Assembly (NCBI GenBank): GCA_964502225.1
Contig: CAZCUC010000002.1
Location: 9,092 to 73,091, forward strand
Reading direction: 5' to 3'
DNA length: 64,000 nucleotides
From: an uncultured Pseudomonadales bacterium
GTDB lineage: Bacteria > Patescibacteriota > Microgenomatia > UBA1400 > UBA12108
Part shown: piece by piece, positions 10,254 through 59,262 of the stretch
How positions within the stretch are numbered: position 1 is the stretch's first letter
Layout: the number at the start of each line of letters is the position of its first letter
Translations under genes and position numbers: made by a program
Notes under the pieces: model-generated
Database searches by the model: none
Told to the model about the DNA's origin: nothing
The model's input: the letters and a program-made list of their open reading frames with translations, nothing else

Positions 10254-10730
10254 TTAGGATAGGGTAGAGATATAGGCATCGAGAGCTTGAACAAAAAATC
10301 CACTGTCTGCGCCAAAGTCGAATGATTTAAGCTCCTCAGGTTTCACCCATTTATACTCAGTATGTTCGCTAGACAAGACTACCTCCCCCTCCTTCGCCAA
10401 GGCTTCGGAGGACATGCCTTCCCAATCTGTGCTGGCATAACAGGCACCAAAAACTGTATCTCCTTTAAAAAACCCTTCCCCCACCCCTATCCTGTTGGTA
10501 AAAAAGATGGGTCGGAGAGAATGAACGATCAAACCGGCTTCTTCCATAACCTCTCGCTTGATGGCATCGATGACGTCTTCTCCCTGCTCATATCCCCCAC
10601 CGGGCAAGTCCCAGTTGCCACCACGCGAGTGATCGTCCTGTGCTCTTTTGAGTGCCAAAATTTTTCCGTCTTTGCCCACCATGATACATTTTTGGATTAA
10701 ACGAACCTTGTTGAGGATTTTTGTTATCAT
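10254..10730 (-). CDS. NUDIX hydrolase
   Basis: Nudix box GGGYEQGEDVIDAIKREVMEEAGL. Confidence 0.8.
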   Translation of the reverse strand: MITKILNKVRLIQKCIMVGKDGKILALKRAQDDHSRGGNWDLPGGGYEQGEDVIDAIKREVMEEAGLIVHSLRPIFFTNRIGVGEGFFKGDTVFGACYASTDWEGMSSEALAKEGEVVLSSEHTEYKWVKPEELKSFDFGADSGFFVQALDAYISTLS

Positions 10731-10761
10731 AAATACATTTTAGCACTGAAGACATACTACG

Positions 10762-10785
10762 ATAATTCGAATTATCGTAGTAATA
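10762..10785. repeat. Perfect 24-bp palindrome CTACGATAATTCGAATTATCGTAG
   Basis: Lies between the half-MFS gene stop and the NUDIX start. No U-tract follows on the minus strand, so it is either an operator or a processing/terminator hairpin. Confidence 0.4.
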
Positions 10786-13491: not shown

Positions 13492-13530
13492 TTTTAGATT
13501 TAAGTTATTAGATTTAAGATATAAGAAAAA

Positions 13531-13553
13531 CCCCGTCGCAAGGCGGGGTTTTT
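13531..13553. terminator. Bidirectional Rho-independent terminator
   Basis: CCCCG-tcgcaagg-CGGGG stem followed by TTTTT and preceded by AAAAA. Sits between the convergent RRM and NRAMP genes. Confidence 0.7.
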
Positions 13554-15440: not shown

Positions 15441-15993
15441 TATTTTCGATATCTTGGTCGTGTTTGGTGAGGACTGCGTCGCTCTTGCGTTTACGGAGGA
15501 TATCGGCCAAGTGGGCTGATTGATCCTGGACCTCGACCTCAAGATCACCCAGTTTACCTGCAACTGGTCCAGGGAAGTCTATGGGTGAGTTGGTTATGAT
15601 ATTACCATCTAGCTTGACCACTTTGTTGAGATTGACGTATGGATCTTCGGCTGTTTGGACGTAGTAAAAATTACCATGAAAAATAGTACTCTTTACTTTG
15701 ATATCTATCAAAAACTCTTCGTCTTTGGCGATGATCTCAATATTGTTTATTTCGCTCTTGAGATGATCCGACACTTTGGCTAGTGCTTGAGCGCGCGGCT
15801 TGAGACCATAAACCACGAGATCAATATCGCCATGATTTCGCGTAATAGTTTGCAAGTAGCCGTCTAGTCCGTAGCCACCATAGACTACGAGACGCCATCC
15901 CTCTGCCTGACACCATACATGAAACGCCTCGATAAATTTTAGGTGGTTTTTAAGCTTGATTTGATCAATATTTGATTTAATAATCATTTTCAT
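15418..15993 (-). CDS. ANT(2'')/Lnu-like nucleotidyltransferase
   Basis: VVYGGYGLDGYLQ...RNHGDIDLVV resembles the GGWA(I/V)D...HDDIDL core of aminoglycoside/lincosamide nucleotidyltransferases. Confidence 0.5.
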   Translation of the reverse strand: MKMIIKSNIDQIKLKNHLKFIEAFHVWCQAEGWRLVVYGGYGLDGYLQTITRNHGDIDLVVYGLKPRAQALAKVSDHLKSEINNIEIIAKDEEFLIDIKVKSTIFHGNFYYVQTAEDPYVNLNKVVKLDGNIITNSPIDFPGPVAGKLGDLEVEVQDQSAHLADILRKRKSDAVLTKHDQDIENINSFLQN

Positions 15994-16817
15994 TTTGTTA
16001 TCTTCTTGTAATTCTTCTCTGAAATAATCGGTCTACCTAGTTTTTGCTCAATCTTCACCCTCGCTTCGCCGGCGATACTACCACCGATATTAGCGTCTTG
16101 CGCGAGTTTCTTTAATCCTTGTGAATCTTCGTTTTTGTGAATCTCGGTGGTGGTTTTTTCTCCCAGCATGGTGAAGATGAGTTCAAAGTCGTTCATGTGG
16201 TCACGAAGGTTTTCTCGCTTTAGCCCTTTTAGTTTTTTATAACTGCTTGGTGTTAGACCAAACGTGGCCTTACTGATTTCAGCAGTTAAAATCTCATAAT
16301 CCCGGCGTTCTCTAGCTCCCCTCATTTGCCACTCTTCTGTTAACTCTTCGCGAATAGCAATACCTCTCATCCTCTTTTCGATCCAGTCGTCGGGGTAACC
16401 CTTGGCTCTATAGAGCATGCGAGTACGCTTTGTGGCTAGCTCGGGATCCTCAATTTCCTGGATCCGATCATAGCCGACTTTGGCGAGCCAGCGTTTGAGT
16501 GGTTCTGCCTTGGGGGATGGGATGGACTGAACAATGCGGAAAATACCCTCAGTATTTGCACAATCAGTTAAATACTTTTTACCATCACTTGATTCCAATT
16601 TCAGTTGTCGACAAATTGTCGATAACTGAAACCCATCCTCACTTTTTACTCTCATTTTCATTCGGTACCAATAATCTTTGGAATCTTCACTTTCTGTTAA
16701 GACAGAAATAATATCCACCACCGAAAACCACCACTGCCCATTTTGAAGAACCCTACGGATCTGTTTGTGCTTGAATAATACTATTTTCGTTGGTTCCATA
16801 GTTATAGTATTAACCAA
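15990..16817 (-). CDS. Bro-N domain protein, DNA-damage-inducible protein D (DinD)-like
   Basis: N-terminal Bro-N-like IRRVLQNGQWWFSVVDIISVL. The C-terminus (KGLKRENLRDHMNDFELI...GEARVKIEQKLG) parallels E. coli DinD. Confidence 0.55.
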   Translation of the reverse strand: MVNTITMEPTKIVLFKHKQIRRVLQNGQWWFSVVDIISVLTESEDSKDYWYRMKMRVKSEDGFQLSTICRQLKLESSDGKKYLTDCANTEGIFRIVQSIPSPKAEPLKRWLAKVGYDRIQEIEDPELATKRTRMLYRAKGYPDDWIEKRMRGIAIREELTEEWQMRGARERRDYEILTAEISKATFGLTPSSYKKLKGLKRENLRDHMNDFELIFTMLGEKTTTEIHKNEDSQGLKKLAQDANIGGSIAGEARVKIEQKLGRPIISEKNYKKITK

Positions 16818-17392: not shown

Positions 17393-18763
17393 TTATTTCT
17401 CCTGAGCTATGACTTTTACCTGTGTCACGTCCTCAAAGCCATACTTGCCGTGCTCACGACCTAGACCAGATTGCTTGTAACCACCAAATGGATCGTACGG
17501 CTTGATATAGCTCAAGTTGTTTTGACTGACCATGCCAGATTGTAACTGGGCAGATACCCTAGACATCAGTTCTTTGTCTGTCGTAAAGACAAAGGCTCCA
17601 AGTCCATACTTGGTATCGTTGGCGAGCTCGATGGCTTCCTGTACAGTCTCAAAGCTGACAACGGGCAGAACTGGACCAAAGACTTCTTCTGTCCAAACCT
17701 TCATATCTTTGGTGACACCAGTAAGGAGCGTTGGCTCGTAATATGCCCCGTCGAATCCTGTCGGTCGTTTACCTCCAGTTAAAATAGTTGCACCTTTAGC
17801 GCGAGCGTCTTCTACTTGGATTTCAAGTGCTTGGACTTGGCGCTCTGCAACAAGTGGTCCGAGCTCGGTTGCTGGATCTATAGCCTGACCTATTTGTTTA
17901 GCATTAATTTTTTCGGTTAATAGCTTGATGACTTCGTCATAGCGAGACTTGTGGACGATGAGGCGTTTGAGCCCATCACACATTTGACCGCAACCCATAA
18001 AGCGGTTGCCATATATCGTATCGATTACTCCGGTAAGATCAACATCTTCAAAGATAATTCCAGGGGCTGATCCACCCATTTCCATGACGGCCGGGATGAA
18101 CTTTTCGGCGGCCACGGTGTACAAATACTTACCAGTTTTTGTACTACCAGTAAAACACAACATATCAATATCTGCATGGGCTAATTGATCACCGACTTTG
18201 CCGTCGCCATACACAAAACTCAGTACTCCGGCGGGTATTTTGGCTTCAACTGCAAGCTCTTCCAGTTTTTTCTCAAATAGAGGTACTTCTTCTGAGTGCT
18301 TGAGGATAACCACGTTCCCGGCGACGAGGCTTTGACCACATTGCCAGACGAAATTGGCGAGCGGATAATTCCAGGGAATGATGGAAGCGACCAAGCCACG
18401 AGGCTCCCTATACACCCGGTGAATCTCTTTATCGTTTTCAAAAGTGGTATAGGGAGAGAGATGTTCGATCGCGTGATCACTGTACCAGCGCAAATAATCA
18501 ATACTACCCTCGATGTCCCCTACCGCCTCACTAATTATCATACCCATTTCAGTAGACTGTAGCTCTGCCAGTTCTTGTTTATTTTTTTCGAGTAAATCAT
18601 AAAAATTGCGCAAGATTTTATTGCGACCTTCTATGCCTAGCTCTCGCCAGGATTGTTGTGCTTTGCGTGCAGATTTTACTTTGGCATCGATTTCTTCTTT
18701 TGTAGACATCTCTACCTCACCAAGTACTGCATTGGTTGAAGGATTAATTGATACTAGTTTCAT
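17393..18763 (-). CDS. NAD(P)-dependent aldehyde dehydrogenase
   Basis: FTGSTKTGK, EMGGSAPGIIFED (Glu active-site region) and FMGCGQMCDG (catalytic Cys) motifs. Confidence 0.85.
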   Translation of the reverse strand: MKLVSINPSTNAVLGEVEMSTKEEIDAKVKSARKAQQSWRELGIEGRNKILRNFYDLLEKNKQELAELQSTEMGMIISEAVGDIEGSIDYLRWYSDHAIEHLSPYTTFENDKEIHRVYREPRGLVASIIPWNYPLANFVWQCGQSLVAGNVVILKHSEEVPLFEKKLEELAVEAKIPAGVLSFVYGDGKVGDQLAHADIDMLCFTGSTKTGKYLYTVAAEKFIPAVMEMGGSAPGIIFEDVDLTGVIDTIYGNRFMGCGQMCDGLKRLIVHKSRYDEVIKLLTEKINAKQIGQAIDPATELGPLVAERQVQALEIQVEDARAKGATILTGGKRPTGFDGAYYEPTLLTGVTKDMKVWTEEVFGPVLPVVSFETVQEAIELANDTKYGLGAFVFTTDKELMSRVSAQLQSGMVSQNNLSYIKPYDPFGGYKQSGLGREHGKYGFEDVTQVKVIAQEK

Positions 18764-19413
18764 AACACCTCCTTGATAAATTGAGCTAGAGCGCGACCGA
18801 GTAAACGATTATTTTCGGCGTCCAAGTGGATTCCATCAACCTGCGAGACAGTCACAACTTTCGAGGCATCGAAAGTGAGTACCTTGTTGTCATCGGCTAG
18901 TTGTTTGATCAGTTTTTGCATTGACAAAATTTTTTCTCCACTCCCGCTAAAGATATTTTTAAATGCTTTGTCGGAGGCAGGCTCGTCGATAGCTGGCGGA
19001 ATCACGAGAGCGATCCGAGGCTTGGGAAAGCCGAGGTGTTTGGCCCACCAAGACACACCACGAATATATTTGATAAGCGGGGAGATTAATTCTTCGGGCG
19101 AAGATTTGCGCGAGCTATTTACATCGTTGGTGCCAAGGAAGATGATGACAAGATCGAGTGGCAAATGGCTACCGATAATGCCGTCAAATTGCGTTAGTCC
19201 ATCGCGATGTGGGAAGAAGCCGTTTTCACCAGAAATAGTACGACCGCGTAACCCCTCTTCGATAATTTCATATTCACTACCTAAATAACTTTGGGTAACT
19301 CCCGTGAAACGGGTGGCAGGATCAAAGCGAAGGCCGCCGGGGATCTTGCCAAATGTATAGGAATCACCGTAGATGAGGATGCGTTTGGCTGAGACGTTGG
19401 TATTCATGGCCAA
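18760..19413 (-). CDS. SGNH/GDSL hydrolase (arylesterase-like)
   Basis: ILIYGDSYTFG block I and LGTNDV block III. Confidence 0.8.
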   Translation of the reverse strand: MAMNTNVSAKRILIYGDSYTFGKIPGGLRFDPATRFTGVTQSYLGSEYEIIEEGLRGRTISGENGFFPHRDGLTQFDGIIGSHLPLDLVIIFLGTNDVNSSRKSSPEELISPLIKYIRGVSWWAKHLGFPKPRIALVIPPAIDEPASDKAFKNIFSGSGEKILSMQKLIKQLADDNKVLTFDASKVVTVSQVDGIHLDAENNRLLGRALAQFIKEVL

Positions 19414-22058: not shown

Positions 22059-22649
22059 TTATCTAGAAATGCGTTGTGAGTTGAGAAAATATTCCTGTAT
22101 TTCCTTATAGCTATTTTCTATTAGTATTCGACTTGAAATAGCAAAGATTTCGATAAGTGTGCCACTTTTCTCACCAATACGCCTTTTGACATCCAAAGGT
22201 CTGCTATTTTTATCTTGTACTAAGACGATGTCAACGTCATAGTAAAATTCATTTGCAGATGGTGGACTCATGTCTACATATTGCTCAAATTCTGGAATTG
22301 GCAGAACGTCTCTACCGTCGATATTGGCACCTAAAATAGGGAGATTGCTAGCGAGATAAGCTATAGATTTTTCACTGAGTTCATGACCCCAGTACCGCTT
22401 TAATTTAGAGTGGTTCCAGTAAATTTTACCTACTTGTCTACTTCCTACTAATCCTACATATTCTGGTTCAGAATTATTTCTTGAGTAATGGTCAATAAAT
22501 CCCCATATATCAATTATTTCGCTGACGTTGCGAACATGCGAGCCTACCTTTAAAGGTCCTAGGAAAGGTCTTTCGTTTAACTGATTTTTCCATTTCTCGT
22601 GATTAAGTTGTGGTGATAAATGATCTGGAGTCATGTTAACATTATACAC
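22059..22649 (-). CDS. Hypothetical protein just downstream of the tRNA-Gln 3' end
   Basis: ORF only, no motif recognised. Confidence 0.3.
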   Translation of the reverse strand: MYNVNMTPDHLSPQLNHEKWKNQLNERPFLGPLKVGSHVRNVSEIIDIWGFIDHYSRNNSEPEYVGLVGSRQVGKIYWNHSKLKRYWGHELSEKSIAYLASNLPILGANIDGRDVLPIPEFEQYVDMSPPSANEFYYDVDIVLVQDKNSRPLDVKRRIGEKSGTLIEIFAISSRILIENSYKEIQEYFLNSQRISR

Positions 22650-28903: not shown

Positions 28904-30325
28904 TCAGTTTACAGAGGACAGGCGGGCAAGCACTTTTTCACGACCGAGAACTTGCATGGTTTCAAAAAGTGGAGGAGTGGCGGTCTTGCCGGTCACGGCT
29001 ATGCGGAGCATCATGAAGTATTGACCTGGCTTCCAGCCATTGGCCTCGGCGAGTGATCTAACTTTTTGCTCGATGTTTTCATGCGTCCAAACTTCTTTAT
29101 CAAGTCCTTCTAGTGCAGACCTAGTGGCGGAGAGCTGAGTAGCAACTTCTTCGGTAGTTGATTTTTTGGTCAGGACTGTTTGATCAACATTGATGTCGCG
29201 GTAGAAGAAAGTGGTGAGCTCCTCGAAATCCTTGAGGGTGACTAGGCGTTCTTTGATCAGGGGAAGAATCTGTGGGACAAGGGTATGTGGACAGTCGGAT
29301 GGGACAAAGGGAGCAAGACGCTTGGTAAGCTCTGTGTCTTCCATCTCGCGGATGTACATGCCGTTGTACCAGTTGAGCTTGTCGATATCAAAGACAGGAG
29401 CGGTGAGGGCTATCCGCTCGATCGTAAAGGTGCGAACAAATTCTTCCATATCGAAAATATCTTTTTTCTCCGGATGCGACCAACTCATGAGTGCAAGAAA
29501 GTTGAGCATAGCTTCTGGTAGGTATCCCTTGTCGCGATATGAAAGGACTGAAACATCATTTTTCCGCTTGCTCATTTTGGAGTGATCTTTGTTCCTGATC
29601 ACGGGTAGGTGCACGAAGATGGGCAGATCCCAGCCAAATGCCTCGTAAATAAGGACGTGCTTGGGGGTGGAAGAGAGCCATTCTTCACCCCGAATAATGT
29701 GGGTGACTTCCATGAGATGGTCATCTACTACTACACCCAAATGGTAAGTGGGGTAACCGTCGGATTTGAGGAGCACTTGGTCATCGATGCCAGAGTTTTG
29801 GAACTCGATGGGACCGCGAATGGCATCCTGGCAGATAGTGACGCCCGTTTCTGGGACTTTGAGGCGGATGACATATGATTCTCCGGCGGCGACGCGCTTT
29901 TTGGCTTCGTCTAAATCTATATTGCGACAAAATTTGTCGTAGCGTGGCAATTCTTTTTTTGCTTGCTGATCAGCACGTACCTGATCGAGGCGCTCTTTGG
30001 TACAGAAGCAGTAATAGGCTTTGCCGTTTTCGATCAGATCCTTGACGTGTTTTTGGTAGCTGGGTAGACACTCGGACTGGATGTAGGGAGCGTGAGGACC
30101 ACCGACGTTAGGCCCTTCATCATTGTCGATACCTAACCAAGCGAGTGCTTCAAAAATAACGTTTACGGCACCCTCTACCAACCTAGTCCTATCCGTATCT
30201 TCGATGCGAATGATAAACTGGCCGCCACTTTGACGGGCCAGTGCCCAGTTGCGCATGGCAGTATAGGCAGTACCTAGATGGAGCATGCCAGTGGGTGAGG
30301 GAGCGATGCGTGTACGTACAGACAT
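28904..30325 (-). CDS. gltX: Glutamyl-tRNA synthetase
   Basis: PSPTGMLHLG (HIGH) and KMSKR motifs. Start set at the internal Met MSVRTR (30325). Confidence 0.88.
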   Translation of the reverse strand: MSVRTRIAPSPTGMLHLGTAYTAMRNWALARQSGGQFIIRIEDTDRTRLVEGAVNVIFEALAWLGIDNDEGPNVGGPHAPYIQSECLPSYQKHVKDLIENGKAYYCFCTKERLDQVRADQQAKKELPRYDKFCRNIDLDEAKKRVAAGESYVIRLKVPETGVTICQDAIRGPIEFQNSGIDDQVLLKSDGYPTYHLGVVVDDHLMEVTHIIRGEEWLSSTPKHVLIYEAFGWDLPIFVHLPVIRNKDHSKMSKRKNDVSVLSYRDKGYLPEAMLNFLALMSWSHPEKKDIFDMEEFVRTFTIERIALTAPVFDIDKLNWYNGMYIREMEDTELTKRLAPFVPSDCPHTLVPQILPLIKERLVTLKDFEELTTFFYRDINVDQTVLTKKSTTEEVATQLSATRSALEGLDKEVWTHENIEQKVRSLAEANGWKPGQYFMMLRIAVTGKTATPPLFETMQVLGREKVLARLSSVN

Positions 30326-31436: not shown

Positions 31437-32723
31437 TTATGGGCGCAAGCGTTTGACATCTCGTGGCAAGAACGTGGCCTCTTTGACACTAGCTAATCCC
31501 AAGATTTGCGCGACGATGCGACCTGGTCCAATGCCAACCCCACCGTGTGGAGGACAACCAAATTTGAAGAACTTCAAATAATCCGATAATGATTCTTCCG
31601 TTAAGCCTTTTTCTGCCGCTTGCTTGACTAGCATGTCGTAGCGATGCTCGCGCTGGGCACCGGTTGTAATTTCAACCCCTTTGTAGAGTAAATCAAAGCC
31701 TTTGGTTAAACCAGTTGCCTCATCACGCATATGGTAAAAGGCGCGGTTATCTTTGGGATAATCGGTGATAAAGACAAACTCACTACCAGTTTCTTCTTTG
31801 ACTATTTTGCAGATACCCCGCTCTTCGTCAGGCGAGAGGTCACCAGCTTTTTCACTGCTTATACCGGCTTGCTTGAGTTTGTTTTTTGCTTCAGCAAAGG
31901 GAATGCGAGCAAATGGGACCTTGATCTCCTCATCAATTAATCCGGCCGTCAATAAATTGGCAAAACCTGATTTGAGCATCGCCTCTTCGGTGTCCATTAT
32001 GTCGTGATGTGAATTAATATAGGCGATCTCAAAGTCCCAGCCAGTAAACTCGGTCATGTGGCGGGTAGTAAAGCTGAGCTCGGCGCGAAAAACAGGTCCT
32101 ACCATAAAGATTTTTTCAAACCCACTAGCAATGGCCATTTGCTTGTAAAACTGCGGCGATTGAGCAAGGTAAGCTTTTCCTTCAAAATACTTAACCTCAA
32201 ATACTTCTGCCCCAGATTCGCTGGCTGCGCTCATTAAAGCTGGAGAGTAGATTTGGGTAAAATTGTTCTTGGCAAAATACTCGCGTATCCCCTGTTCGAG
32301 TACAGTCCAGACACGGAAGATTTTATGAGATTCGCTTTTGCGCAGATCGAGCCAGCGCCAGTCAAAACGATTAGTGACGTCGACGTCGGCAGCACCTTTT
32401 TCTAAGGCTACAGGAATGGGGAGCTGGGCGTCGGATACTGAGAGCACTGTGGCTTTCAAACCGTCAATTTCAAACCCTTCTTGGACTTGTTTGGATTCTT
32501 TAACTAATCCTTCAATCTCCACAACAGATTCGAGCGAGAGATCTTTGACCACGGCGAACACATCTGCGTTCCAGGTACCACTCACTACCTGGACTGAGCC
32601 AGTCTCGTCGCGTAGACGCAGGAAAGCGATCTTGCCCTGGTTGCGGAGACTATGGGCAAAGCCAGCAACTGTGACAGTTTCACCGATTTTTGTTGATAGC
32701 TCTTTGACTTGGACTCTTTTCAT
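31437..32723 (-). CDS. Class IIb aminoacyl-tRNA synthetase, archaeal-type AspRS or AsnRS
   Basis: N-terminal OB anticodon-binding domain, motif 2 FRAE, C-terminal GGVGIGPGRIVAQILG motif 3, about 430 aa. Confidence 0.8.
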   Translation of the reverse strand: MKRVQVKELSTKIGETVTVAGFAHSLRNQGKIAFLRLRDETGSVQVVSGTWNADVFAVVKDLSLESVVEIEGLVKESKQVQEGFEIDGLKATVLSVSDAQLPIPVALEKGAADVDVTNRFDWRWLDLRKSESHKIFRVWTVLEQGIREYFAKNNFTQIYSPALMSAASESGAEVFEVKYFEGKAYLAQSPQFYKQMAIASGFEKIFMVGPVFRAELSFTTRHMTEFTGWDFEIAYINSHHDIMDTEEAMLKSGFANLLTAGLIDEEIKVPFARIPFAEAKNKLKQAGISSEKAGDLSPDEERGICKIVKEETGSEFVFITDYPKDNRAFYHMRDEATGLTKGFDLLYKGVEITTGAQREHRYDMLVKQAAEKGLTEESLSDYLKFFKFGCPPHGGVGIGPGRIVAQILGLASVKEATFLPRDVKRLRP

Positions 32724-32737
32724 ATAGCGATTATAGC

Positions 32738-33700
32738 TTAGAGATCAGGAGTTATCCAACTATGGTGGGAGTAAGCCCAGTCGATGAGTTTGGCAGAATC
32801 GCCGAATCTATCGAGGGAACCCAAGACTACGACGACAATTTTGTGCCCATCTCGCTCTACATAACTCACGAGACACTCCCCTGCGGCAGTAGTCCAGCCG
32901 GTTTTGAGTCCGATCATACCTGGTACAACTCCCAAGAGTTCGTTGGTGGTTTCGAGCTTGTGGGTGATGGTGCCAGCAACATCTGTCACGGTCACAAATT
33001 TTGTACTTGCCATGTCGGCAATGATCGGATTATCCATGGCAACCGAGGCTAGGATCGCCAGATCGCGAGCTGTGGTTGTGTGACCGTATTGCTCAACCCC
33101 AGATGGGTTTTTGAAGGTTGTATGGTCAAGATGGAGCTCCCCTGCTTTGTCGTTCATAGCTTTGACAAAAGCGGTGTATCCACCAGGGTAGTTATCGGCT
33201 ACGGCGAGGGCCGCGTCGTTGCCCGAATGTACGATCAAACCATAAAGAATGTTTTTGAGCGTGATAGTCTCGCCTTTTTCGAGATCGATGGTTTGACCGA
33301 TAGCTCGGTCTTCATTTTTGACTGTAATCTGAGTGTCTAGATCACTCCAGTGCTCCAGGGCAACGAGGGCAGTCATGACTTTGGTGATAGATGCAGGCAG
33401 GAGGAGGGTGTCGGGATTTTTGCTATACAAAATGGTCTTGCTTCCGACGTCTTGGATAACGACTGCTCTGGCGGTAGTGTAGGGAGCTTTGATACCGCCT
33501 GATATTGGGTAGAGTAAAGGCGTGATCTCGCTGAGACTATAGGCACGGATAGGTCCAGGATGTAAAACTATTGTTTGGAGCTGGTTGTGACCAGGATAAA
33601 GGAACGCAAGGAGATAGAGGCTAGATGCGAGGAGATAGTGAGATGGAGGCAATCTCAGCAGAAACGAAATAAATGTTGAAAAAGATTTAAAGTTCCACAT
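32738..33700 (-). CDS. D-alanyl-D-alanine carboxypeptidase (peptidase S11, PBP5-like)
   Basis: SITKVMTA (SxxK), HSGND (SxN) motifs and a KTG-like region. Confidence 0.75.
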   Translation of the reverse strand: MWNFKSFSTFISFLLRLPPSHYLLASSLYLLAFLYPGHNQLQTIVLHPGPIRAYSLSEITPLLYPISGGIKAPYTTARAVVIQDVGSKTILYSKNPDTLLLPASITKVMTALVALEHWSDLDTQITVKNEDRAIGQTIDLEKGETITLKNILYGLIVHSGNDAALAVADNYPGGYTAFVKAMNDKAGELHLDHTTFKNPSGVEQYGHTTTARDLAILASVAMDNPIIADMASTKFVTVTDVAGTITHKLETTNELLGVVPGMIGLKTGWTTAAGECLVSYVERDGHKIVVVVLGSLDRFGDSAKLIDWAYSHHSWITPDL

Positions 33701-35354
33701 AGCTACCGATCAGTTGGAGTGATTCTTTGTTCTGCCAAACATTAATATCGATCGTACAAATTAGCGCTTTAATATACTTTAAGGGGTAGTCTTCTTTGGC
33801 GTTAAAAAGCATTAGTTCACGGGTTGTCCCGTTTTGCTCGACCGTAAGTTTGCGGTGCTTCCCTTCTGCCCCCAGTTTTCTATCCTCGAGGACCGTAAGA
33901 TTTTCTAAGAGAAATTTGGGTTTTTGGTTTCTCATCCCAAATGGCTCGAGTGTATGGAGTAGCTTGGCGAGTGAGAGCGAGGTTGATGAAAGAGGGAGAC
34001 TCAGGTCGGCCGAGTGTGATTTGAGCAGTAAACTATCGGCAATCGTGGTATCGGCTAGTTGCTCGAGCTCGTCCTTCATGGGAGCCACTTGATCTTTAGC
34101 CAAACTAAAACCGGCGGCTTGATCGTGTCCGCCCAGTCCGAGGAAAGGAGTTTGGAGGGAACGGAGTAGATCGGTGATGTTGACACCACTGACCGATCTT
34201 GCGGATCCTTTGATCACGTCACCATTGTCGCTCATGACTACGGCTGGGCGATGGAATAGTTCGGTCAATTTACCAGCTACGAGTCCTATCACGCCTTCGT
34301 GATAGTCGCCAGTTACAACAATAATTTTGTGAGCGATATCCTTGCCTACGACCATTTTGAGCGCACGGTCGGTATATTCTTGCCGATCTTTGTTGTGTGA
34401 TTCTATTTTTCCCGCTAAAACCTGAGAGATTTCTGGATTACTACTGCAGAGGAGCCTCAAGGCATCGAGAGGATTGTATATCCGACCAGAAGCATTGATC
34501 CGTGGCGCAATACCAAAACTGATATCGTAGGTGGTGAGCGACTTTTCTGCCACACCCATGACGGTCTTCATGGCAATTAAACCTACCCGCTTGGTATGAG
34601 ATAGCAGTTTGAGCCCGTGGGCGGCAATTGACCGGTTGAGCCCAGTCAAAGGCATCATGTCGGCAACTACTCCGATTGTGACGAGATCTAGTAACTGCAT
34701 ACCTGGTTCTCCAAGGAGATACATGGCAAAAATCCAAGCTACACCTGCACCGGAGGTGTGGAGCGTGTGGATGATCGCAGTCGCAGGAGGCAAACCAACC
34801 TCTAGGGGTAAGTGATGATCGGTGACGATTACATCGATACCTGCATCGCGAAATGACTTGATACCGGCGTGGGCTACTATCCCAGTATCCACCGTGATAA
34901 TAAGTTTGGGTGAGAAATCCTTGTATTGCCCTGTCCCAAAGGCTGTACCCGTGATTACTTCACCCACTGCCTTGTCTCCTAGGCCATAGCCGTGTTTGTG
35001 TCGGTCTGGGATAAAAGGCAAGATACGTGAGCTCGAGCTTTGCTGTTTGGCGTAGGCAGTGATGGTCTGCCACATGATGGCGCAACTGGTGACCCCATCG
35101 GCGTCGTAATCGCCAAAAACACAGATATCATGACCGAGGGAAATGTGGGCATCTAGTATTTTCTTGGCTTTTGTGAGGACTGTTTTGGTTATCCCAGATT
35201 CTTTGAGGAGATATTCTAGTGAGGGCTCGGGTGGGTGGAGAAATGCGTCTTGTTCTTTGGCTGTTTTGTATCCCCGACTTTCCAATATGGCCTCAAAAAT
35301 CTCTTGAGCGTTTGCCCCATCTTTCACTTTTGTTTTGATTTTGATATCAGTCAT
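33687..35354 (-). CDS. recJ: Single-stranded-DNA-specific exonuclease RecJ
   Basis: DHH-family motifs DYDADGVTS, VTDHH, GGHDQAAG. Start ambiguous: 35354 (MTDIKIK) places the palindromic motif upstream, whereas 35399 would run through it. Confidence 0.85.
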   Translation of the reverse strand: MTDIKIKTKVKDGANAQEIFEAILESRGYKTAKEQDAFLHPPEPSLEYLLKESGITKTVLTKAKKILDAHISLGHDICVFGDYDADGVTSCAIMWQTITAYAKQQSSSSRILPFIPDRHKHGYGLGDKAVGEVITGTAFGTGQYKDFSPKLIITVDTGIVAHAGIKSFRDAGIDVIVTDHHLPLEVGLPPATAIIHTLHTSGAGVAWIFAMYLLGEPGMQLLDLVTIGVVADMMPLTGLNRSIAAHGLKLLSHTKRVGLIAMKTVMGVAEKSLTTYDISFGIAPRINASGRIYNPLDALRLLCSSNPEISQVLAGKIESHNKDRQEYTDRALKMVVGKDIAHKIIVVTGDYHEGVIGLVAGKLTELFHRPAVVMSDNGDVIKGSARSVSGVNITDLLRSLQTPFLGLGGHDQAAGFSLAKDQVAPMKDELEQLADTTIADSLLLKSHSADLSLPLSSTSLSLAKLLHTLEPFGMRNQKPKFLLENLTVLEDRKLGAEGKHRKLTVEQNGTTRELMLFNAKEDYPLKYIKALICTIDINVWQNKESLQLIGSYVEL

Positions 35355-35361
35355 AGATTTT

Positions 35362-35387
35362 ATTCCGTTGAATCGATTCAACGGAAT
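35362..35387. promoter_or_regulatory. 26-bp perfect palindrome ATTCCGTTGAATCGATTCAACGGAAT (copy 1 of 3)
   Basis: Seen directly in the sequence. Lies 7 nt upstream of the recJ Met 35354. Confidence 0.6.
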
Positions 35388-35388
35388 A

Positions 35389-36108
35389 TTATTTTTCAAG
35401 AATAAATTTAGTAGCTAAGTTTAGCATTTCTAGCCAGGCTACTTTCTCAATATCGCTCGTGGGTCTGAGCATAGGGTGGCCATAGCCACTGATCTCGTGG
35501 AATTGAGGATGTAAAGCTGACTCTCTAAAAGAAGTTTTCACTCCCTCTGGGATTACTTTGTCATCTAATCCGTAAATAATCAACGTGTGGCTTAAATACT
35601 TCTTCAAGTCTGTAAATGCTCCACTGGAATTCCAGTTCTCAGGTTTATTAATAATTTCTGTAAAGTCTGGACCAAAAGGCTGTGATTCTGCCTCTAATCC
35701 ATACGCGGCCGCTGATTGGAGTATTAAACCTTTGATCTTTAGATGTTTGGAAATCAATCTACAGGCTATGTGTCCACCCATGCTGGATCCCCAAAGATAT
35801 ATTTGATTCTCGGATAATCCTGTTGTATTAATAAAATATTGCAAGGCTGATTCGGCATCGATTAATCGGTCGTTGAGAGTACTGTTTGTCAGATATCCTT
35901 CACTATTTCCGCAACCTCTAAAGCTAAATGCTAGGCTAATAATCCCCTGATTGGCTAGGTATGCCTGCACTTCCCCATATCGCTCAGCATCAGCGTGACC
36001 GCCCCCATGAAAAAAAATGACTCCCTTTTTGACTGTGGGATTGGGTGTCACCAAGACGCCATCGAGTAATAGGTTGTTGGATTTAATTTTTAAGTGCGTA
36101 GTATTCAT
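35389..36108 (-). CDS. Alpha/beta hydrolase (dienelactone hydrolase/peptidase S9-like)
   Basis: WGSSMGGHIA nucleophile elbow and a HGG-type oxyanion region (FFHGGGH). Confidence 0.65.
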   Translation of the reverse strand: MNTTHLKIKSNNLLLDGVLVTPNPTVKKGVIFFHGGGHADAERYGEVQAYLANQGIISLAFSFRGCGNSEGYLTNSTLNDRLIDAESALQYFINTTGLSENQIYLWGSSMGGHIACRLISKHLKIKGLILQSAAAYGLEAESQPFGPDFTEIINKPENWNSSGAFTDLKKYLSHTLIIYGLDDKVIPEGVKTSFRESALHPQFHEISGYGHPMLRPTSDIEKVAWLEMLNLATKFILEK

Positions 36109-36116
36109 ATACTTGT

Positions 36117-36142
36117 ATTCCGTTGTATCGATACAATAGAAT
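36117..36142. promoter_or_regulatory. 26-bp palindromic motif ATTCCGTTGTATCGATACAATAGAAT (copy 2 of 3)
   Basis: Lies 8 nt upstream of the hydrolase start codon (36108) and downstream of the HTH gene. Confidence 0.6.
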
Positions 36143-36150
36143 ATTTGATT

Positions 36151-36603
36151 CTACCTCAGTTGACTTCGAAGGTTGCGGGATTTTAGGCGTGTGACTTTTT
36201 CATTTCCAGCTTTTTGCCAGTTACGGTACTTGCCGGGAGGCAATTTGTCTAAGATAGCCTCTATCTGGTCAAAAAACTGTTGCCAATCTTTTTTGAGATC
36301 AAGCAATCCTAAGGCTTTTCTTGTGGTTGGACTGGCGTTTTTGAGCCAACTACTGACACTCATGACGGCGGAGTTACTGACAAATAAAGTATCCTTGATA
36401 TGTTCCACTTTCTGTCCACGCATGAGTAACACCATTATCATGAACCTTTTGCTTAACATTATTTTTTCCGTCTGTGTCAAAAAGTCGTTTAAAAACTCAT
36501 AAAATCCATTTTTTGCAGAGATTAGTGAAGCAAACTCACAAAGTTCTCCAAAAATGAGTTTTTCCATCTCTGGCTGGAGCTGATGCCTAGAAATCTGGGT
36601 CAT
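36151..36603 (-). CDS. TrpR/YerC-YecD-like helix-turn-helix protein
   Basis: SKRFMIMVLLMRGQKVEHIKDTLFVSNSAVMSVSSWLK resembles the TrpR-family HTH (ER..I..LL..G.SYREIA...GVS.ATITRGS..LK). Confidence 0.5.
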   Translation of the reverse strand: MTQISRHQLQPEMEKLIFGELCEFASLISAKNGFYEFLNDFLTQTEKIMLSKRFMIMVLLMRGQKVEHIKDTLFVSNSAVMSVSSWLKNASPTTRKALGLLDLKKDWQQFFDQIEAILDKLPPGKYRNWQKAGNEKVTRLKSRNLRSQLR

Positions 36604-36610
36604 ATTTTTT

Positions 36611-36636
36611 ATTCCGATCTATCGATACAACGGAAT
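36611..36636. promoter_or_regulatory. 26-bp palindromic motif ATTCCGATCTATCGATACAACGGAAT (copy 3 of 3)
   Basis: Lies 7 nt upstream of the HTH gene start (36603), in the region divergent from cca. Confidence 0.6.
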
Positions 36637-36695
36637 GAAACTAATTGAGTCTCATTACATGATACACCCCTAGTAGGCGTGGTAGACTATATGCT

Positions 36696-38075
36696 ATGAA
36701 ATACAAGTTTGATCATGGGGTGGTGAAAATAGTAGAAACGATTGAGAAAGCGGGATATGAGGTGTGGATAGTGGGGGGAGCTGTGCGCGACTTACTGCTT
36801 GATATCCCCTCTTCTGACTGGGACGTAACCACAAATGCCTCGCCTGAGCAAATCCAACCTTTATTTGCCGATAGTTTTTATGACAATGAGTACGGCACAG
36901 TCAAAGTAGCTGGTAAACATATAAGCGAACAATTTGGGCTGGCAGAAGGCGAGATTGATGACTCGGTTCTCTACGATATCACCACCTACCGTAGTGAGAG
37001 TGAGTATAGCGATAAGCGTAGGCCAGATAGTGTTGAATGGGGCAAGACCGTGGAGGAAGACCTTAAGCGTCGTGACTTTACGATCAACGCGATTGCCCTT
37101 CGACAAGCTCAGGGTAAACTCACAGAAATCATAGATCCTTACGGTGGACAAGAGGATTTGAAAAATAAATTGATCAAGGCAGTCGGGGATCCAACTGAGC
37201 GATTTGAAGAAGATGCCCTCCGGATCATGCGGGCGATCCGACTATCGTCCCAACTAGGATTTATGATTGAGGATCAAACACTTGTGGCGCTCAAAGAAAA
37301 AGTAGCCAATTTGAAAGAGATTTCGTGGGAAAGGATTGGCGCTGAAACAATGAAGCTCCTGGGAACCGAGCACGCGGCCGATGGGATCCAGCTAATGGTC
37401 AATACTGGGATTATAGAGATCGTGATGCCAGAACTACTCTCGATGAAAGAGGTCAAGCAAGGTGGTCATCATATATATGACGTCTTCACTCATAGCCTAG
37501 AAGCACTTAGGGCTTGCCCCTCTCCTGATCCGGTCGTACGCCTAGCAACACTGATCCATGATATTGACAAACCGGTGGTAGCCAAAGCTGGCGGTGAGCG
37601 GGGAGTGACGTTTTATAACCACGAAGTGTCTGGGGCGCGGACAGCCAAGCGGATAGCCGAGCGACTAAAGCTGTCCAAAAAAGACCAGGACCGGGTGTTT
37701 ACCCTCGTTCGCTGGCACATGTTTGTGTACGAATCCAAAATGACCGATGCCTCGATCCGCAGATTTATCCGCCGGGTGGGCAAAGAAAATATTCATGACA
37801 TGATGGCACTGCGTATTGGTGACCGCGTGGGGGGTGGATCGAAGGCTACTAGCTGGCGACTGACGGAACTACAGAAGAGAATTGGTGAACAGTTCTATGA
37901 ACCACTGTCGCTCAAAGATATGAATATAAATGGGGCTGAGATTATGACACTCTTAAATATCCCCCCTTCCCGTAAAGTGGGCGAAATACTCAATGTCCTA
38001 TTTGAAGAAATATTGGATGATAGCTCTAAGAATACTAAAGAGTATTTGGAAAAACGAGTGAAGGAATTAGCGTAG
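36696..38075 (+). CDS. cca: CCA-adding tRNA nucleotidyltransferase with HD domain
   Basis: Head motif VWIVGGAVRDLLL...DWDV, RRDFTINA, and a C-terminal HD region (HS...IHDIDK). Confidence 0.85.
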   Translation: MKYKFDHGVVKIVETIEKAGYEVWIVGGAVRDLLLDIPSSDWDVTTNASPEQIQPLFADSFYDNEYGTVKVAGKHISEQFGLAEGEIDDSVLYDITTYRSESEYSDKRRPDSVEWGKTVEEDLKRRDFTINAIALRQAQGKLTEIIDPYGGQEDLKNKLIKAVGDPTERFEEDALRIMRAIRLSSQLGFMIEDQTLVALKEKVANLKEISWERIGAETMKLLGTEHAADGIQLMVNTGIIEIVMPELLSMKEVKQGGHHIYDVFTHSLEALRACPSPDPVVRLATLIHDIDKPVVAKAGGERGVTFYNHEVSGARTAKRIAERLKLSKKDQDRVFTLVRWHMFVYESKMTDASIRRFIRRVGKENIHDMMALRIGDRVGGGSKATSWRLTELQKRIGEQFYEPLSLKDMNINGAEIMTLLNIPPSRKVGEILNVLFEEILDDSSKNTKEYLEKRVKELA

Positions 38076-48444: not shown

Positions 48445-49305
48445 TTAGTCCTCTTGTATATAGCTATCATACCATTTTATACTTTTAACCTTGTTAAACC
48501 AAGTCATTTGCCTTTTAACGTAAGCCATTTCGTCCCTTACCCAATTCTCTATCAGTTGAGCGTAGGACAAATCACCTTTTAGGTAGCTAATAATACTTTT
48601 GTAGCCAATAGCGGTCATAGATTTGAGGTTGGGATCGTATTTGGAAAGGAGTGTTTTGGTTTCTTCGATCGCTCCATCATTTAGCCGGTCTATTACCCGA
48701 GATTTGATAATACTACGATGATTCGAATCATCGTAGTATTTAAGTCCAATGAGATTAGATTCGAGCTTAGAGAGGCTAGATTCTCGTGTGGACTTGGGAG
48801 ATACGGCAACTTCAATTGCACGACTTAATCGCCGGGGATTGTTCACATCACTATTGTTCATACTGGCAAATTTGGCTAGATCTAACTCTTTTAACTTGAG
48901 CTTTAGCTTGGAGGTAGATAGGAGCGATAGCTCGTCGCGGAGTGATTGATTGATGGGGACACTGAGTGTCGCAATCCCATCAGTTAAGGCTTTGACGTAG
49001 AGGCCAGTACCACCCACCACAATAACCTGTTTATCCTCTTCCCATGCACGCTGGATATGAGGCATGACAGAGTTGTACCAGACAGATACTGAGCATTCCT
49101 CGTCTGGATCCACGATGTCGATCCCGTAGAGCACAAGATCTTTTGGATGATCTTTGCCGGTGACGATGTCCATACCTCGATAGACCTGGCGAGAGTCGGC
49201 AGAGACCAAAATGCTTGGTGAGAGTTTAGATAACTCGATGGCTTTTTTGGTTTTACCGGTGGCAGTTGGTCCGACGACACAGTGGAGTTTGTGCATATTA
49301 GTCAA
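48445..49305 (-). CDS. miaA: tRNA dimethylallyltransferase
   Basis: P-loop VVGPTATGKT and SADSRQVYRGMDIVTGK motifs. Confidence 0.88.
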   Translation of the reverse strand: MTNMHKLHCVVGPTATGKTKKAIELSKLSPSILVSADSRQVYRGMDIVTGKDHPKDLVLYGIDIVDPDEECSVSVWYNSVMPHIQRAWEEDKQVIVVGGTGLYVKALTDGIATLSVPINQSLRDELSLLSTSKLKLKLKELDLAKFASMNNSDVNNPRRLSRAIEVAVSPKSTRESSLSKLESNLIGLKYYDDSNHRSIIKSRVIDRLNDGAIEETKTLLSKYDPNLKSMTAIGYKSIISYLKGDLSYAQLIENWVRDEMAYVKRQMTWFNKVKSIKWYDSYIQED

Positions 49306-57914: not shown

Positions 57915-58451
57915 CTAAGGTTTCGACCGACCGCGAATGCCAGTCTTTTGATATTCAAGTGCTTTTCTCAGTAAATCAATCCTTACGATATAGCTATCCT
58001 TATTAAATCTCCTGAGTAAACTGGAGTAGTGATTTGTGGGTGCTAATACTTTTAATAACTTCTTATTTGCTTCGAGATATTCTACTAAACAGAAAAAATC
58101 GCCATCTCCTGAGACAATGATCGCCTTGTCGTAGTGCTTGTACTCGATCATGGTGTGTAATACCAGTTCGGCATCGACATTCCCTTTTACAATGACTTTA
58201 TCACCCTCTTTGTGTTCAAGAGTTGGTTTGAAAATGCAAATATATCCTGCTTTCTTAAGTGAAGCGTAGAGTGGTTCGTTGCCTTGGATAAGACCGATAA
58301 ACAAGTAAGCTTTAGACACATGATATTTGTCGGTTAAGTAGCGGCGAAACTTGGCGAAATCTAGCGTCCAACCCTGAGACTTGACACCTAGGTTAAGGTT
58401 TTGACTATCAATAAAGGCGTAAACTATTTTTTCTTTCGTTTTCTTTTCCAT
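57915..58451 (-). CDS. NYN/LabA-like PIN-fold domain protein
   Basis: IVYAFIDSQNLNLG...AIIVSGDGDF, conserved NYN acidic residues. Confidence 0.65.
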   Translation of the reverse strand: MEKKTKEKIVYAFIDSQNLNLGVKSQGWTLDFAKFRRYLTDKYHVSKAYLFIGLIQGNEPLYASLKKAGYICIFKPTLEHKEGDKVIVKGNVDAELVLHTMIEYKHYDKAIIVSGDGDFFCLVEYLEANKKLLKVLAPTNHYSSLLRRFNKDSYIVRIDLLRKALEYQKTGIRGRSKP

Positions 58452-58526
58452 GCTTCCAATTTATCCCAAACACTACCCGAATGTCAACGGGATCAAAATA
58501 TCACGTCACTTATTAATTTGTGTAAT

Positions 58527-59087
58527 TTATGTCAATAATTCAGGAAGTCCAATTCTGGATAAGTATCCTGAGAATCTTTGAGATAGTTCCTCACGGAACA
58601 ATTCACTTAAACTTGCCAAGTAAATTTCCTTCTTTCTATCGTATAGAAATTTTCTAGGTAATGTAAAAAAGTGCTTAAAATCTAATATTAATTCTGGAAT
58701 TAAGTAGTCTTCATGCTTACTTAAATAATGATATCTTTTATACTCATCATTTTTTCTTAGTTTCTCTAACTCCCGGTTACTAAAAACTCTCATTGGCCAA
58801 TCATCGATTTGTTTGCCTAGTGCAAATTGTTCTATGTGATATGCGGGACATACCAGCATTGATCTTAAATACTTGTCATTATTACTTTCCTTGCCGCGAC
58901 TATTGTAATCTTGTTCTATATCACAGTCTTGACTAAGTATTACTGCATATTCTAAAGAAACATGATCCTTTTCTGTATCTAATCCAGCATCACCCACAAC
59001 GAAATCGAGGTCTTTCAGTATGTCTCCTTGATATAGTCTTGAATTAGGACTTTTCCTATACTTCTTTTTAATCTTGCTTTTGAGCAT
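58527..59087 (-). CDS. Hypothetical protein C (186 aa) of the low-GC island
   Basis: ORF in about 31% GC DNA with basic termini and a central acidic D/E cluster (LSQDCDIEQD). Nothing recognised. Confidence 0.4.
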   Translation of the reverse strand: MLKSKIKKKYRKSPNSRLYQGDILKDLDFVVGDAGLDTEKDHVSLEYAVILSQDCDIEQDYNSRGKESNNDKYLRSMLVCPAYHIEQFALGKQIDDWPMRVFSNRELEKLRKNDEYKRYHYLSKHEDYLIPELILDFKHFFTLPRKFLYDRKKEIYLASLSELFREELSQRFSGYLSRIGLPELLT

Positions 59088-59259
59088 AGTTAATTGTACC
59101 GAAAGATGTTCTTTTTACAGTGTAGCTTTGATTATCACGGGAAAGAACTGCGTCTGTTTCGTCAGGATAACCATTTTCAGTTGTTTGAGGTGTCCCTGAG
59201 AAATCCTGATAATCCGTAGAATCGGCATGATTTGGTTGATATATATTTAATCCATCCAT
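59068..59259 (-). CDS. Small acidic low-complexity protein B (63 aa) of the low-GC island
   Basis: Short ORF between genes A and C on the same strand. Overlaps C by 20 nt. Coding status uncertain. Confidence 0.25.
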   Translation of the reverse strand: MDGLNIYQPNHADSTDYQDFSGTPQTTENGYPDETDAVLSRDNQSYTVKRTSFGTINYAQKQD

Positions 59260-59262
59260 ATA

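Follow-up and report, generated by a model that had tools for sequence, protein, structure and literature searches.

In a 64,000-nt stretch of contig CAZCUC010000002.1 (the window), three copies of a 26-bp palindrome precede three consecutive genes, those for a 150-residue helix-turn-helix protein (HTH1), an alpha/beta hydrolase and RecJ. Comparison with related loci makes it likely that these palindromes are double-stranded DNA operators for a symmetric dimer of the adjacent, TrpR-fold HTH1 protein, which would act as an autoregulated repressor. An earlier note on this DNA had named the flanked TrpR/YerC-like gene as the candidate binder and suggested autoregulation. Comparative evidence speaks strongly for that proposal, namely conservation at orthologous loci, a family-wide arrangement with a palindrome at both ends of the regulator gene (the bracket), co-variation of the palindrome with the recognition helix, the absence of hairpin covariation, and the predicted TrpR fold of the protein. 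As far as the compared sequences tell, a gene with two putative operators is the hallmark of a large TrpR/YerC branch centred on the candidate phyla radiation (CPR), each subfamily of which has its own palindrome. The source organism of the window falls in this radiation too, within Woesebacteria/Microgenomates, judging from the names of its homologs.

The motif, ATTCCGTTGNATC·GATNCAACGGAAT (the dot marks the centre of symmetry), occurs in the window at 35362-35387, 36117-36142 and 36611-36636, with the positions and sequences given in the earlier note. The random expectation was 0 matches in 100 dinucleotide-preserving shuffles with up to 3 mismatches allowed, and no fourth copy with up to 7 mismatches was found in the 64-kb window. 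Copy 1 (35362..35387; ATTCCGTTGAATCGATTCAACGGAAT) is a perfect palindrome, 28 nt long once the flanking T/A is counted; it lies 1 nt past the hydrolase stop codon and 7 nt ahead of the recJ ATG, and it is lineage specific. Copy 2 (36117..36142), the downstream site, lies 8 nt past the HTH1 stop codon and 8 nt ahead of the hydrolase ATG. Copy 3 (36611..36636; ATTCCGTTGTATCGATAGATCGGAAT in mRNA sense), the upstream site, lies 7 nt ahead of the HTH1 ATG and combines two half-site variants described below (A''/B). Copies 2 and 3 each carry 2 mismatches to the pattern. These distances to the starts of recJ (Met 35354), the hydrolase gene (36108) and the HTH1 gene (36603) are the 7 to 8 nt first reported. 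The claim that the arm mismatches are not compensatory also held, since they consist of A-A and C-C oppositions in copy 3 and of one wobble plus one mismatch in copy 2.

HTH1 (36151..36603, minus strand), the presumed palindrome binder, was assigned from Pfam, its AlphaFold2 model and Foldseek. The protein matched the Pfam family Trp_repressor (PF01371) over residues 21 to 98 with 30.3 bits, against a gathering cut-off of 27. The model (predicted local distance difference test score, pLDDT, 83) has eight helices, and a C-terminal extension of 45 residues comprises two helices (107-119 and 129-149) and a basic tail. The top 42 Foldseek matches in the PDB were all E. coli TrpR or the TrpR-like structures 3KOR, 3FRW and 3G1C, with probabilities of 0.94-1.00 (1.00 for the top 33) and target-normalised template modelling (TM) scores of 0.57-0.82. 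The modelled structure is that of a true TrpR fold. At 150 aa, HTH1 falls outside the size of about 100 aa that characterizes the TrpR/YerC superfamily. An exhaustive profile search returned 2199 cluster representatives when matches up to E = 1e-3 were counted, and 783 up to 1e-10; most are 130-150 aa long. The family thus numbers about 2,200 clusters at 50% identity.

The TrpR and HisR/YerC proteins bind 20-bp palindromes as dimers and often regulate their own genes (PMC9413887). HisR, a repressor of the TrpR family, has palindromic operators of 20 bp whose sequence depends on the lineage, and in about half of genomes one of its sites precedes the HisR gene itself; B. subtilis YerC is a HisR, and so is 3G1C (PMC9413887). 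With E. coli TrpR, HTH1 shares the fold (probability 1.00, with 25-28% identity across some 100 residues and a match to PF01371), an operator, putative for HTH1, with dyad symmetry over some 20 bp or more, like those of trp, aroH and trpR, and putative autoregulation. It differs from TrpR by its length, its two extra C-terminal helices and basic tail, and its CPR hosts; its operator is 26 bp long (up to 36 bp in relatives), has another sequence and is accompanied by a second one right after the stop codon. The HisR structures 3KOR, 3FRW and 3G1C were the best, albeit weak, matches of a PDB sequence-profile search (E 0.02-0.1), and they are the closest solved relatives by both profile and fold (TM 0.71-0.82). 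HisR and HTH1 both have lineage-specific palindromes and a site upstream of their own gene. In contrast to HTH1, HisR is under 100 aa long and controls his genes with histidine as the co-repressor. No trp or his genes were found beside any site, and the gene contexts (cca/recJ, ftsEX-pcsB and metG/tatD) differ from those of HisR; the bracket is new relative to HisR, and some of the HTH1 sites are intragenic.

We compared the window with orthologous HTH1 loci, whose proteins are 57-98% identical and which include orthologs from Joint Genome Institute (JGI) metagenomes. All related loci (designated L plus a number) were read as 8-20-kb pieces rather than as whole metagenome-assembled genomes (MAGs). 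The gene order, with cca divergent from the HTH1 gene and the latter followed by the hydrolase gene where present, recJ, dacA and an aminoacyl-tRNA synthetase gene, is kept across these loci. A palindrome directly follows the HTH1 stop codon in all orthologous loci examined, whatever the next gene. The upstream palindrome ends 5-10 nt ahead of the HTH1 start at all of them except L044 and L048, where it is degenerate. The positions are kept even though the HTH1 proteins are only 57-82% identical and the flanking intergenic sequence diverges. The earlier note had proposed checking whether the motif keeps its position at orthologous loci; the two sites that flank the HTH1 gene do, and the recJ copy is lineage specific.

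The consensus of the sites across orthologs is CCG-W-T-S-W-ATCGAT-W-S-A-W-CGG-AA. Four half-site variants, A (CCGTTGAATC), A' (CCGATGAATC), A'' (CCGTTGTATC) and B (CCGATCTATC), combine freely. One asymmetric combination, A/B (CCGTTGAATCGATAGATCGG), is kept upstream of the HTH1 gene in several lineages and is found on both sides of it in L008 and L046-L053. In L044 (687-725) an unrelated GC-rich 24-nt palindrome, ACCCGCCTTGCC·GGCGAGGCGGGT, has taken the place of the left half of the upstream operator, and the downstream operator there is still perfect.

The gene that follows the second copy is that of the hydrolase; in L008 and L045-L053, which lack the hydrolase, it is recJ, and in L009 the hydrolase is reduced to a 61-aa remnant. 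The copy in front of recJ was found only in the window, L001, L002/L033, L041 and, in a decayed form with two substitutions, L028, and it is absent at L004 and L006-L011. The earlier view of recJ as a regulon member therefore needs revision, as its copy is limited to close relatives and elsewhere the second copy precedes any next gene, or a convergent one. The downstream site is thus tied to the HTH gene, and recJ is not what it serves as an operator.

The bracket extends well beyond the HTH1 orthologs. From 68 JGI metagenome loci plus L042, the most distant match of the first round, we obtained 38 distinct genes with 26-44% identity and both flanks readable, and 94 other genes of the same loci served as controls. 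A palindrome lies no more than 60 nt upstream of the start codon in 33 of the 38 distant homologs, compared with 13/94 controls. Within about 50 nt of the stop codon one is present in 36/38 homologs and 8/94 controls; it is often 0-11 nt away or overlaps the stop codon. An identical 14-nt core is found at both gene ends in 26 of the distant homologs and in none of the controls (26/38 and 0/94). The bracket is also seen in L042 and in a second subfamily, HTH2. The genomic contexts differ between subfamilies, with each conserved: pcsB-like/LTD after ftsEX, metG/tatD, pgk, or thrS. In L090/L095 the bracketed 150-aa family member lies between metG and tatD. An HTH1-holding MAG also carries, directly upstream of metG, a third, shorter YerC-like gene of about 120 aa that is unbracketed (L014, 4732-5095, minus strand).

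The core of the palindrome differs by subfamily and tracks the type of recognition helix. Helices of the type VSPSTVER go with ATACGATA·TATCGTAT, MSPATIxRMS with GTATCATA·TATGATAC, VSxxTIxxV with AATGATTy·rAATCATT, and VSNSAVMSV with CCGTTGAATC·GATTCAACGG. Within the HTH1 orthologs, inspection revealed no clean link between single recognition-helix residues and the choice of CCGTTG or CCGATG.

The placement of the sites relative to predicted promoters is also informative; promoters throughout are consensus predictions, with start sites unmapped. In the window lineage, the spacer between cca and the HTH1 gene contains three conserved blocks, which are the -10-like box of cca, that of the HTH1 gene (TATCAT; 36659..36664, minus strand) and the palindrome. 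In the L011/L054 lineage the HTH1 box reads TAATAT. The palindrome begins 23-30 nt 3' of this box in the lineage alignment (about 23 nt for copy 3), and the operator would therefore span about +17 to +42. No -10 box that would render the three genes leaderless was found in the stretch from palindrome to ATG. For the distant subfamilies, a strict consensus scan identified promoters at 15/36 loci. In the best of these (sigma-70-like TTGACA-17/18-TAAAAT, 10-11 matches of 12), the palindrome is centred at -1 to -10, and at L105/L106 the -35 and -10 elements of a leaderless promoter both fall within its arms. This predicted position over the -10 box or start in several distant subfamilies is the classical geometry of negative autoregulation. 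A conserved site at or just past the gene's own core promoter, which characterizes autoregulated repressors, was thus found on the predicted promoters.

Sites of the same type occur elsewhere in related genomes. A degenerate 22-mer was scanned against 185,579 species genomes, keeping exact-pattern matches only and leaving weaker copies out. The scan returned 30 loci. About seven of them are in unrelated phyla, a number in keeping with the roughly four chance matches estimated from the size of the collection, and two of these lie inside conserved enolase coding sequence. The remaining loci come from CPR MAGs in which the HTH1 locus is present and other contigs carry further sites, with totals of 8 sites in CAYGFS01, 7 in JBAQEX01, 5 in JBDRPO01 and 3 in CAJAUT01. 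One perfect 26-mer was found in a Gottesmanbacteria MAG. The sites lie upstream of a UvrD-like helicase gene and Nudix genes, at adenylate kinase promoters, at gene 3' ends, and between convergent genes for UDG and a GNAT protein (the convergent spacer of L015). Others are intragenic, in genes for a GT4 glycosyltransferase, MiaA, a CofD-like protein, Ham1 and a truncated cyclase. The GT4 site occupies the same codons in three genomes whose proteins are 58-70% identical, and in GT4, miaA, Ham1 and the cyclase the reading frame is tCC GAT GAA TCG ATT CAA CGG AAT (S-D/V-E-S-I-Q/H-R-N). The MiaA proteins of the window and L029 align without gaps, with the palindrome replacing codons of the IPPT domain. 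No similarity beyond about 30 nt is conserved among the site loci.

The set of sites is not confined to this locus: related genomes carry 3-8 exact-pattern sites per MAG, on further contigs. We considered a DNA-repair or nucleotide-sanitation regulon (recJ, UvrD, UDG, Nudix, Ham1, adk), which is suggestive; conserved orthologous placement does not support it. The Nudix gene with an HTH1-type site in L026/L021 is not an ortholog of the Nudix gene of the window, with 30% identity and no synteny, and the adenylate kinases with nearby sites, in L016 and L018, share just 34% identity.

The window also holds sites of a second type, of the form TACTACGATrATTC·GAATyATCGTAGTA, which share the core CG-W-TGA-W-TCGA-W-TCA-W-CG with the 26-bp motif. 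The degenerate core CGWTSWWTCGAWWSAWCG had 5 matches in the window with up to 2 mismatches, compared with 0.2 expected. A perfect 28-nt palindrome at 10755..10782 (TACTACGATAATTC·GAATTATCGTAGTA) covers the -35 region of a leaderless-type Nudix promoter (TGCTAAAAT followed by 6 nt and the ATG). A perfect 32-nt palindrome at 48709..48740 (AATACTACGATGATTC·GAATCATCGTAGTATT) lies in frame inside miaA and encodes YYDDSNHRS. Both match the bracket of the HTH2 subfamily, TTACTTCRATGATTTAAATCAYTGAAG, which was found in Woesebacteria MAGs. The same miaA codons carry an HTH1-type site in L029 (the CAYGFS genome) and an HTH2-type site in the window, and tandem HTH1-type and HTH2-like sites occur in L013, L014, L017 and L036. 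Neither an HTH2-type paralog nor the HTH2 gene context is present in the window; we infer from the two sites that the genome probably encodes an HTH2 paralog elsewhere. A third type of palindrome abuts an HTH1-type site at L018 (1416-1442) and L032 (about 3405-3430; AATATCACACACCGGGTGTGAGATATT, ATATCGCATACCGGGTATGTGATAT), and a further factor may bind there.

Could the palindromes act as RNA instead, as hairpins in a polycistronic mRNA that serve as processing or stabilizer sites, terminators, or translational occluders before start codons? Copy 1, which abuts the recJ start, does fold stably (-14.8 kcal/mol, z = -4.8), the sites lie at gene boundaries, and the plus-strand version was flagged as terminator-like. 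In addition, some bracket copies reach 13-17-bp arms, with one compensatory change in the outer arms. However, only that perfect copy beat its shuffles; for copies 2 and 3, as for the conserved A/B heterosites, folding was no better than for shuffled sequence (z from -1.6 to +0.1). Among 18 distinct HTH-flanking sites, read in mRNA sense as an 11-pair hairpin, 81.3% of positions paired, compared with 79.1 +/- 1.4% when the 3' letters were shuffled, and 43/500 shuffles were as high; three variable arm positions were unpaired in 5-8 of the 18. The dyad passes through an exact, invariant centre, ATCGAT or TTCGAA, so that the would-be loop is itself palindromic. Within a genome the two copies agree in sequence, down to identical asymmetric deviations (L112, L008, L046-53), and some sites are found where convergent genes meet or ahead of promoters. 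The palindromes have no Rfam match and no U-tract on the coding strand, the sole terminator-like call being on the non-coding plus strand. Pair counts, folding z-scores and Rfam thus argue against a hairpin or terminator, which we consider very improbable. Since the arms vary independently and heterosites are unfolded, selection appears to act on the half-site sequence, as for a dimeric DNA-binding protein. The preference of the earlier note for a dimeric protein operator is borne out by this lack of hairpin covariation and by the freely combining half-sites. The window does contain a classical bidirectional hairpin resembling an intrinsic terminator, at 13526-13553 (AAAAACCCCGTC-GCAA-GGCGGGGTTTTT); ordinary terminators of this genome therefore look quite unlike the motif.

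A natural deletion was found in a near relative. L028 (MAG CAZBML01), which is 90-94% identical to the window, lacks exactly window positions 36137-36606, that is, the HTH1 gene and one palindrome. At the junction (1731-1754), the two alignments have 24 nt in common, all within the palindrome. On this sequence evidence, recombination between copies 2 and 3 explains the loss, which would amount to a natural knock-out. The two substitutions in the recJ copy of L028 fit relaxed constraint, but neutral divergence would yield about as many, and they are thus anecdotal.

The L028 deletion is among the observations that could point to a selfish or mobile origin. The palindromes would then be a REP-like (repetitive extragenic palindrome) or MITE-like (miniature inverted-repeat transposable element) repeat, or delimit an excisable palindrome-HTH-palindrome cassette, and HTH1 would be a domesticated element-binding protein, comparable to a REPtron. 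REPtrons also comprise a single-copy, vertically inherited gene flanked by cognate palindromes, as REP-associated tyrosine transposase (RAYT) genes are flanked by REPs, together with dispersed copies and a palindrome family that co-varies with the protein. In our case, further copies are scattered over other contigs and also lie within genes, the housekeeping surroundings change from subfamily to subfamily as though by insertion, a half-site of L044 has been replaced by another GC-rich palindrome, and the deletion removed the gene and one copy precisely. However, the flanked gene encodes a TrpR-fold HTH protein without a catalytic domain and not a Y1 HUH transposase, no Y1 transposase (Y1_Tnp) is present in the window, and no transposase or recombinase goes with the unit. 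A 26-nt direct repeat can delete by ordinary recombination or slippage. As to site-specific recombination sites of the dif/Xer or attC-like kind, which go with a tyrosine or serine recombinase and an asymmetric centre, no such recombinase was found beside any locus examined and the centre is symmetric, but L028 does show a precise deletion between two copies. REPs number tens to hundreds, mostly extragenic, whereas here there are 3-8 exact-pattern sites per MAG, several of them intragenic. Moreover, the dyad runs through the centre, the HTH1 type lacks the GTAG signature, and some copies lie within genes without added length. The gapless MiaA alignment, with codons replaced, argues against insertions, including in-frame insertion of a MITE or a Rickettsia palindromic element. 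The same positions are occupied in genomes whose proteins are 58-70% identical, and the synteny of each subfamily is stable over deep divergence. The earlier note had reasoned that occurrence at many random positions, including inside genes, would mark a MITE-like repeat; sites do occur on other contigs and within genes, but they are few, positionally conserved and not insertions. We therefore regard a selfish or mobile origin as quite unlikely. One HTH1-type site, in frame in the truncated cyclase open reading frame (ORF) of L035 (3496-4120), lies 130 nt upstream of an IS200-like Y1 transposase gene, a proximity that would favor such an origin. This transposase gene is flanked by its own unrelated GC-rich end hairpins, and L035 probably represents an insertion sequence next to a site, with a coincidental association. 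A bolder version, that palindrome, TrpR-like gene and palindrome form an excisable and insertable cassette that spreads its own palindromes through CPR genomes in RAYT/REP-like fashion, overwriting codons as in miaA and handing sites between paralogs, is a long shot. Its sites would serve as roadblocks or landmarks, and its protein would not be an ordinary metabolic repressor.

A related view makes the protein mainly architectural. HTH1 on a few long palindromes would be a roadblock or insulator that separates the transcription units of a compact genome, or a landmark for the nucleoid, segregation or replication, with autoregulation as a side effect. This would accommodate the 3-8 sites per MAG on different contigs, with their conserved intragenic positions and convergent junction, as well as the presence of the downstream bracket copy regardless of the orientation of the next gene; the asymmetric A/B sites could give polarity. 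The parS/ParB, NBS/Noc, matS/MatP and Ter/RTP systems likewise have few long palindromic protein sites per genome (putative ones in our case), some intragenic and positionally conserved. The rtp gene adjoins its own sites and is autoregulated, a layout like that of HTH1. HTH1, however, belongs to an unrelated family, having a TrpR fold and not being a homolog of ParB, Noc, MatP or RTP. What varies least here is how closely the sites adjoin, or overlap, the promoter or start of the regulator gene, as is typical of transcription factors that control their own genes. The presence of several paralogs with their own site types in one clade also looks more like a transcription-factor family, and the sites could be placed by contig only, as the MAGs are fragmented. 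We consider a primarily architectural role unlikely.

Several points weigh against an autoregulated repressor, which nevertheless remains our preferred explanation. All support for binding is comparative, and the co-variation of palindrome and recognition helix is confounded with phylogeny. The window operator lies 3' of the predicted start, where roadblocks are less usual, and that start derives from a promoter guessed by consensus. Since a downstream copy is found also where a convergent gene comes next (L080, L083, L091, L092/93), a simple model of an operator for the next gene fails, and the bracket has to be seen as belonging to the regulator gene. A role of this copy in looping or termination is conjecture. 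Conserved intragenic sites (miaA, GT4, CofD-like, Ham1) and the convergent spacer of L015 are unexpected for a classical small regulon. In addition, one bracket copy often extends to 26-36 nt of perfect symmetry, exceeding the footprint of a TrpR dimer, and L069 shows a compensatory outer-arm change relative to L064/65/91. Long symmetry and outer compensation thus leave room for a structural component, a hairpin or cruciform.

With autoregulation by HTH1 as the preferred reading, the following mechanism can be proposed. A dimer of HTH1 would bind the palindromes on DNA. Occupation of the upstream operator, at about +17 to +42, would block RNA polymerase and cause negative autoregulation. The downstream operator, after the stop codon, would gate read-through or initiation into the next gene, which is the hydrolase gene and then recJ via the third, lineage-specific copy. 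Alternatively or additionally, the downstream and upstream operators might pair, looping out the gene of roughly 480 bp. The C-terminal extension may supply extra contacts or oligomerization for sites of 26-36 bp. The further genomic copies, some intragenic, would be additional binding sites with roles in regulation, as roadblocks or in architecture. The comparison establishes the sites and how they are conserved, the bracket, its co-variation with the protein, the fold and the absence of hairpin covariation; binding, the sign of regulation, a ligand, looping, and the roles of the downstream and intragenic sites are what we infer here.

The neighboring genes are as the earlier note had called them. 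recJ (33687..35354, minus strand; DHH/DHHA1/RecJ_OB) lies 3' of copy 1, and orthologs of 553-555 aa back Met 35354 as its start. The alpha/beta hydrolase gene (35389..36108, minus strand), between copies 2 and 1, is missing or a remnant at some orthologous loci. The HTH1 gene matches Trp_repressor, and the divergent cca gene (36696..38075, plus strand) encodes the CCA-adding enzyme, with its synteny kept. The -10-like box of cca (TAGACT, preceded by TGG; 36683..36688, plus strand) is a conserved block, TATAAT in L011/L054, that lies 7 nt ahead of the ATG; because this distance is so short, the cca mRNA would be leaderless. The earlier suggestion that cca might come under the same regulation found no support, as nothing ties this gene to the regulon and its conserved -10 box is its own, placed as for a leaderless mRNA.

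The cca geometry recurs at many window genes. A Shine-Dalgarno-like motif is present in just 33/78 long window ORFs, and in many of the remaining ones a -10 box of the form TAnnnT, frequently accompanied by TGn, precedes the ATG by 6-7 nt (e.g., 18760..19407, 22059..22634, 28904..30325, 31437..32723 and 10254..10730, minus strand, and 36696..38075, plus strand). This pattern suggests that leaderless mRNAs may be widespread in the Woesebacteria-like genome of the window; a literature search found no published account of widespread leaderless mRNAs in CPR bacteria. The abutment of motif and start codon had been taken to argue against the usual Shine-Dalgarno arrangement. The abutment itself stands, but a missing Shine-Dalgarno sequence is common in this genome, and in one lineage recJ has an AGGAG 3' of the palindrome. 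Use of the GGAA of the right arm as a Shine-Dalgarno sequence is not general either, L046-L053 having their own separate AGGAG in that position.

Other features of these sequences are unrelated to the bracket. A 33-nt near-perfect palindrome, TTTCAGTTGTCGACAA-A-TTGTCGATAACTGAAA, lies at 16599-16631 in a Bro-N-domain ORF (15990..16817, minus strand) and belongs to none of the motif families. The region 58001-60000, just upstream of the ribosomal-protein block, is AT-rich (GC 0.335, compared with about 0.45 elsewhere). Several loci (L014, L015, L018, L022, L028, L029, L033 and L039) are CPR/Woesebacteria-like by gene content and identity to the window, yet they are labelled "uncultured Pseudomonadales." L037, labelled "Oligoflexales," carries a perfect site of 30 nt and could be a CPR contig that was binned wrongly.

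Autoregulated repressors of the TrpR family that act on palindromic operators are already known. What is new is a large CPR-centred branch with a C-terminal extension and an obligatory two-operator bracket, along with long, perfect, positionally conserved intragenic sites, coexisting paralogs with apparent hand-over of sites, and a natural, operator-mediated knock-out; a literature search found no published description of these features. The CPR bacteria, or Patescibacteria, have tiny genomes with few recognizable regulators, and almost nothing is known of their transcriptional control. By carrying a palindrome at both gene ends, each member of this family reveals its own candidate binding site, which makes regulon reconstruction and in vitro testing feasible for uncultured organisms. 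The bracket, the intragenic sites that override codons, the site hand-over and the knock-out by operator recombination are unusual for TrpR-type repressors, and hint at functions beyond simple repression.

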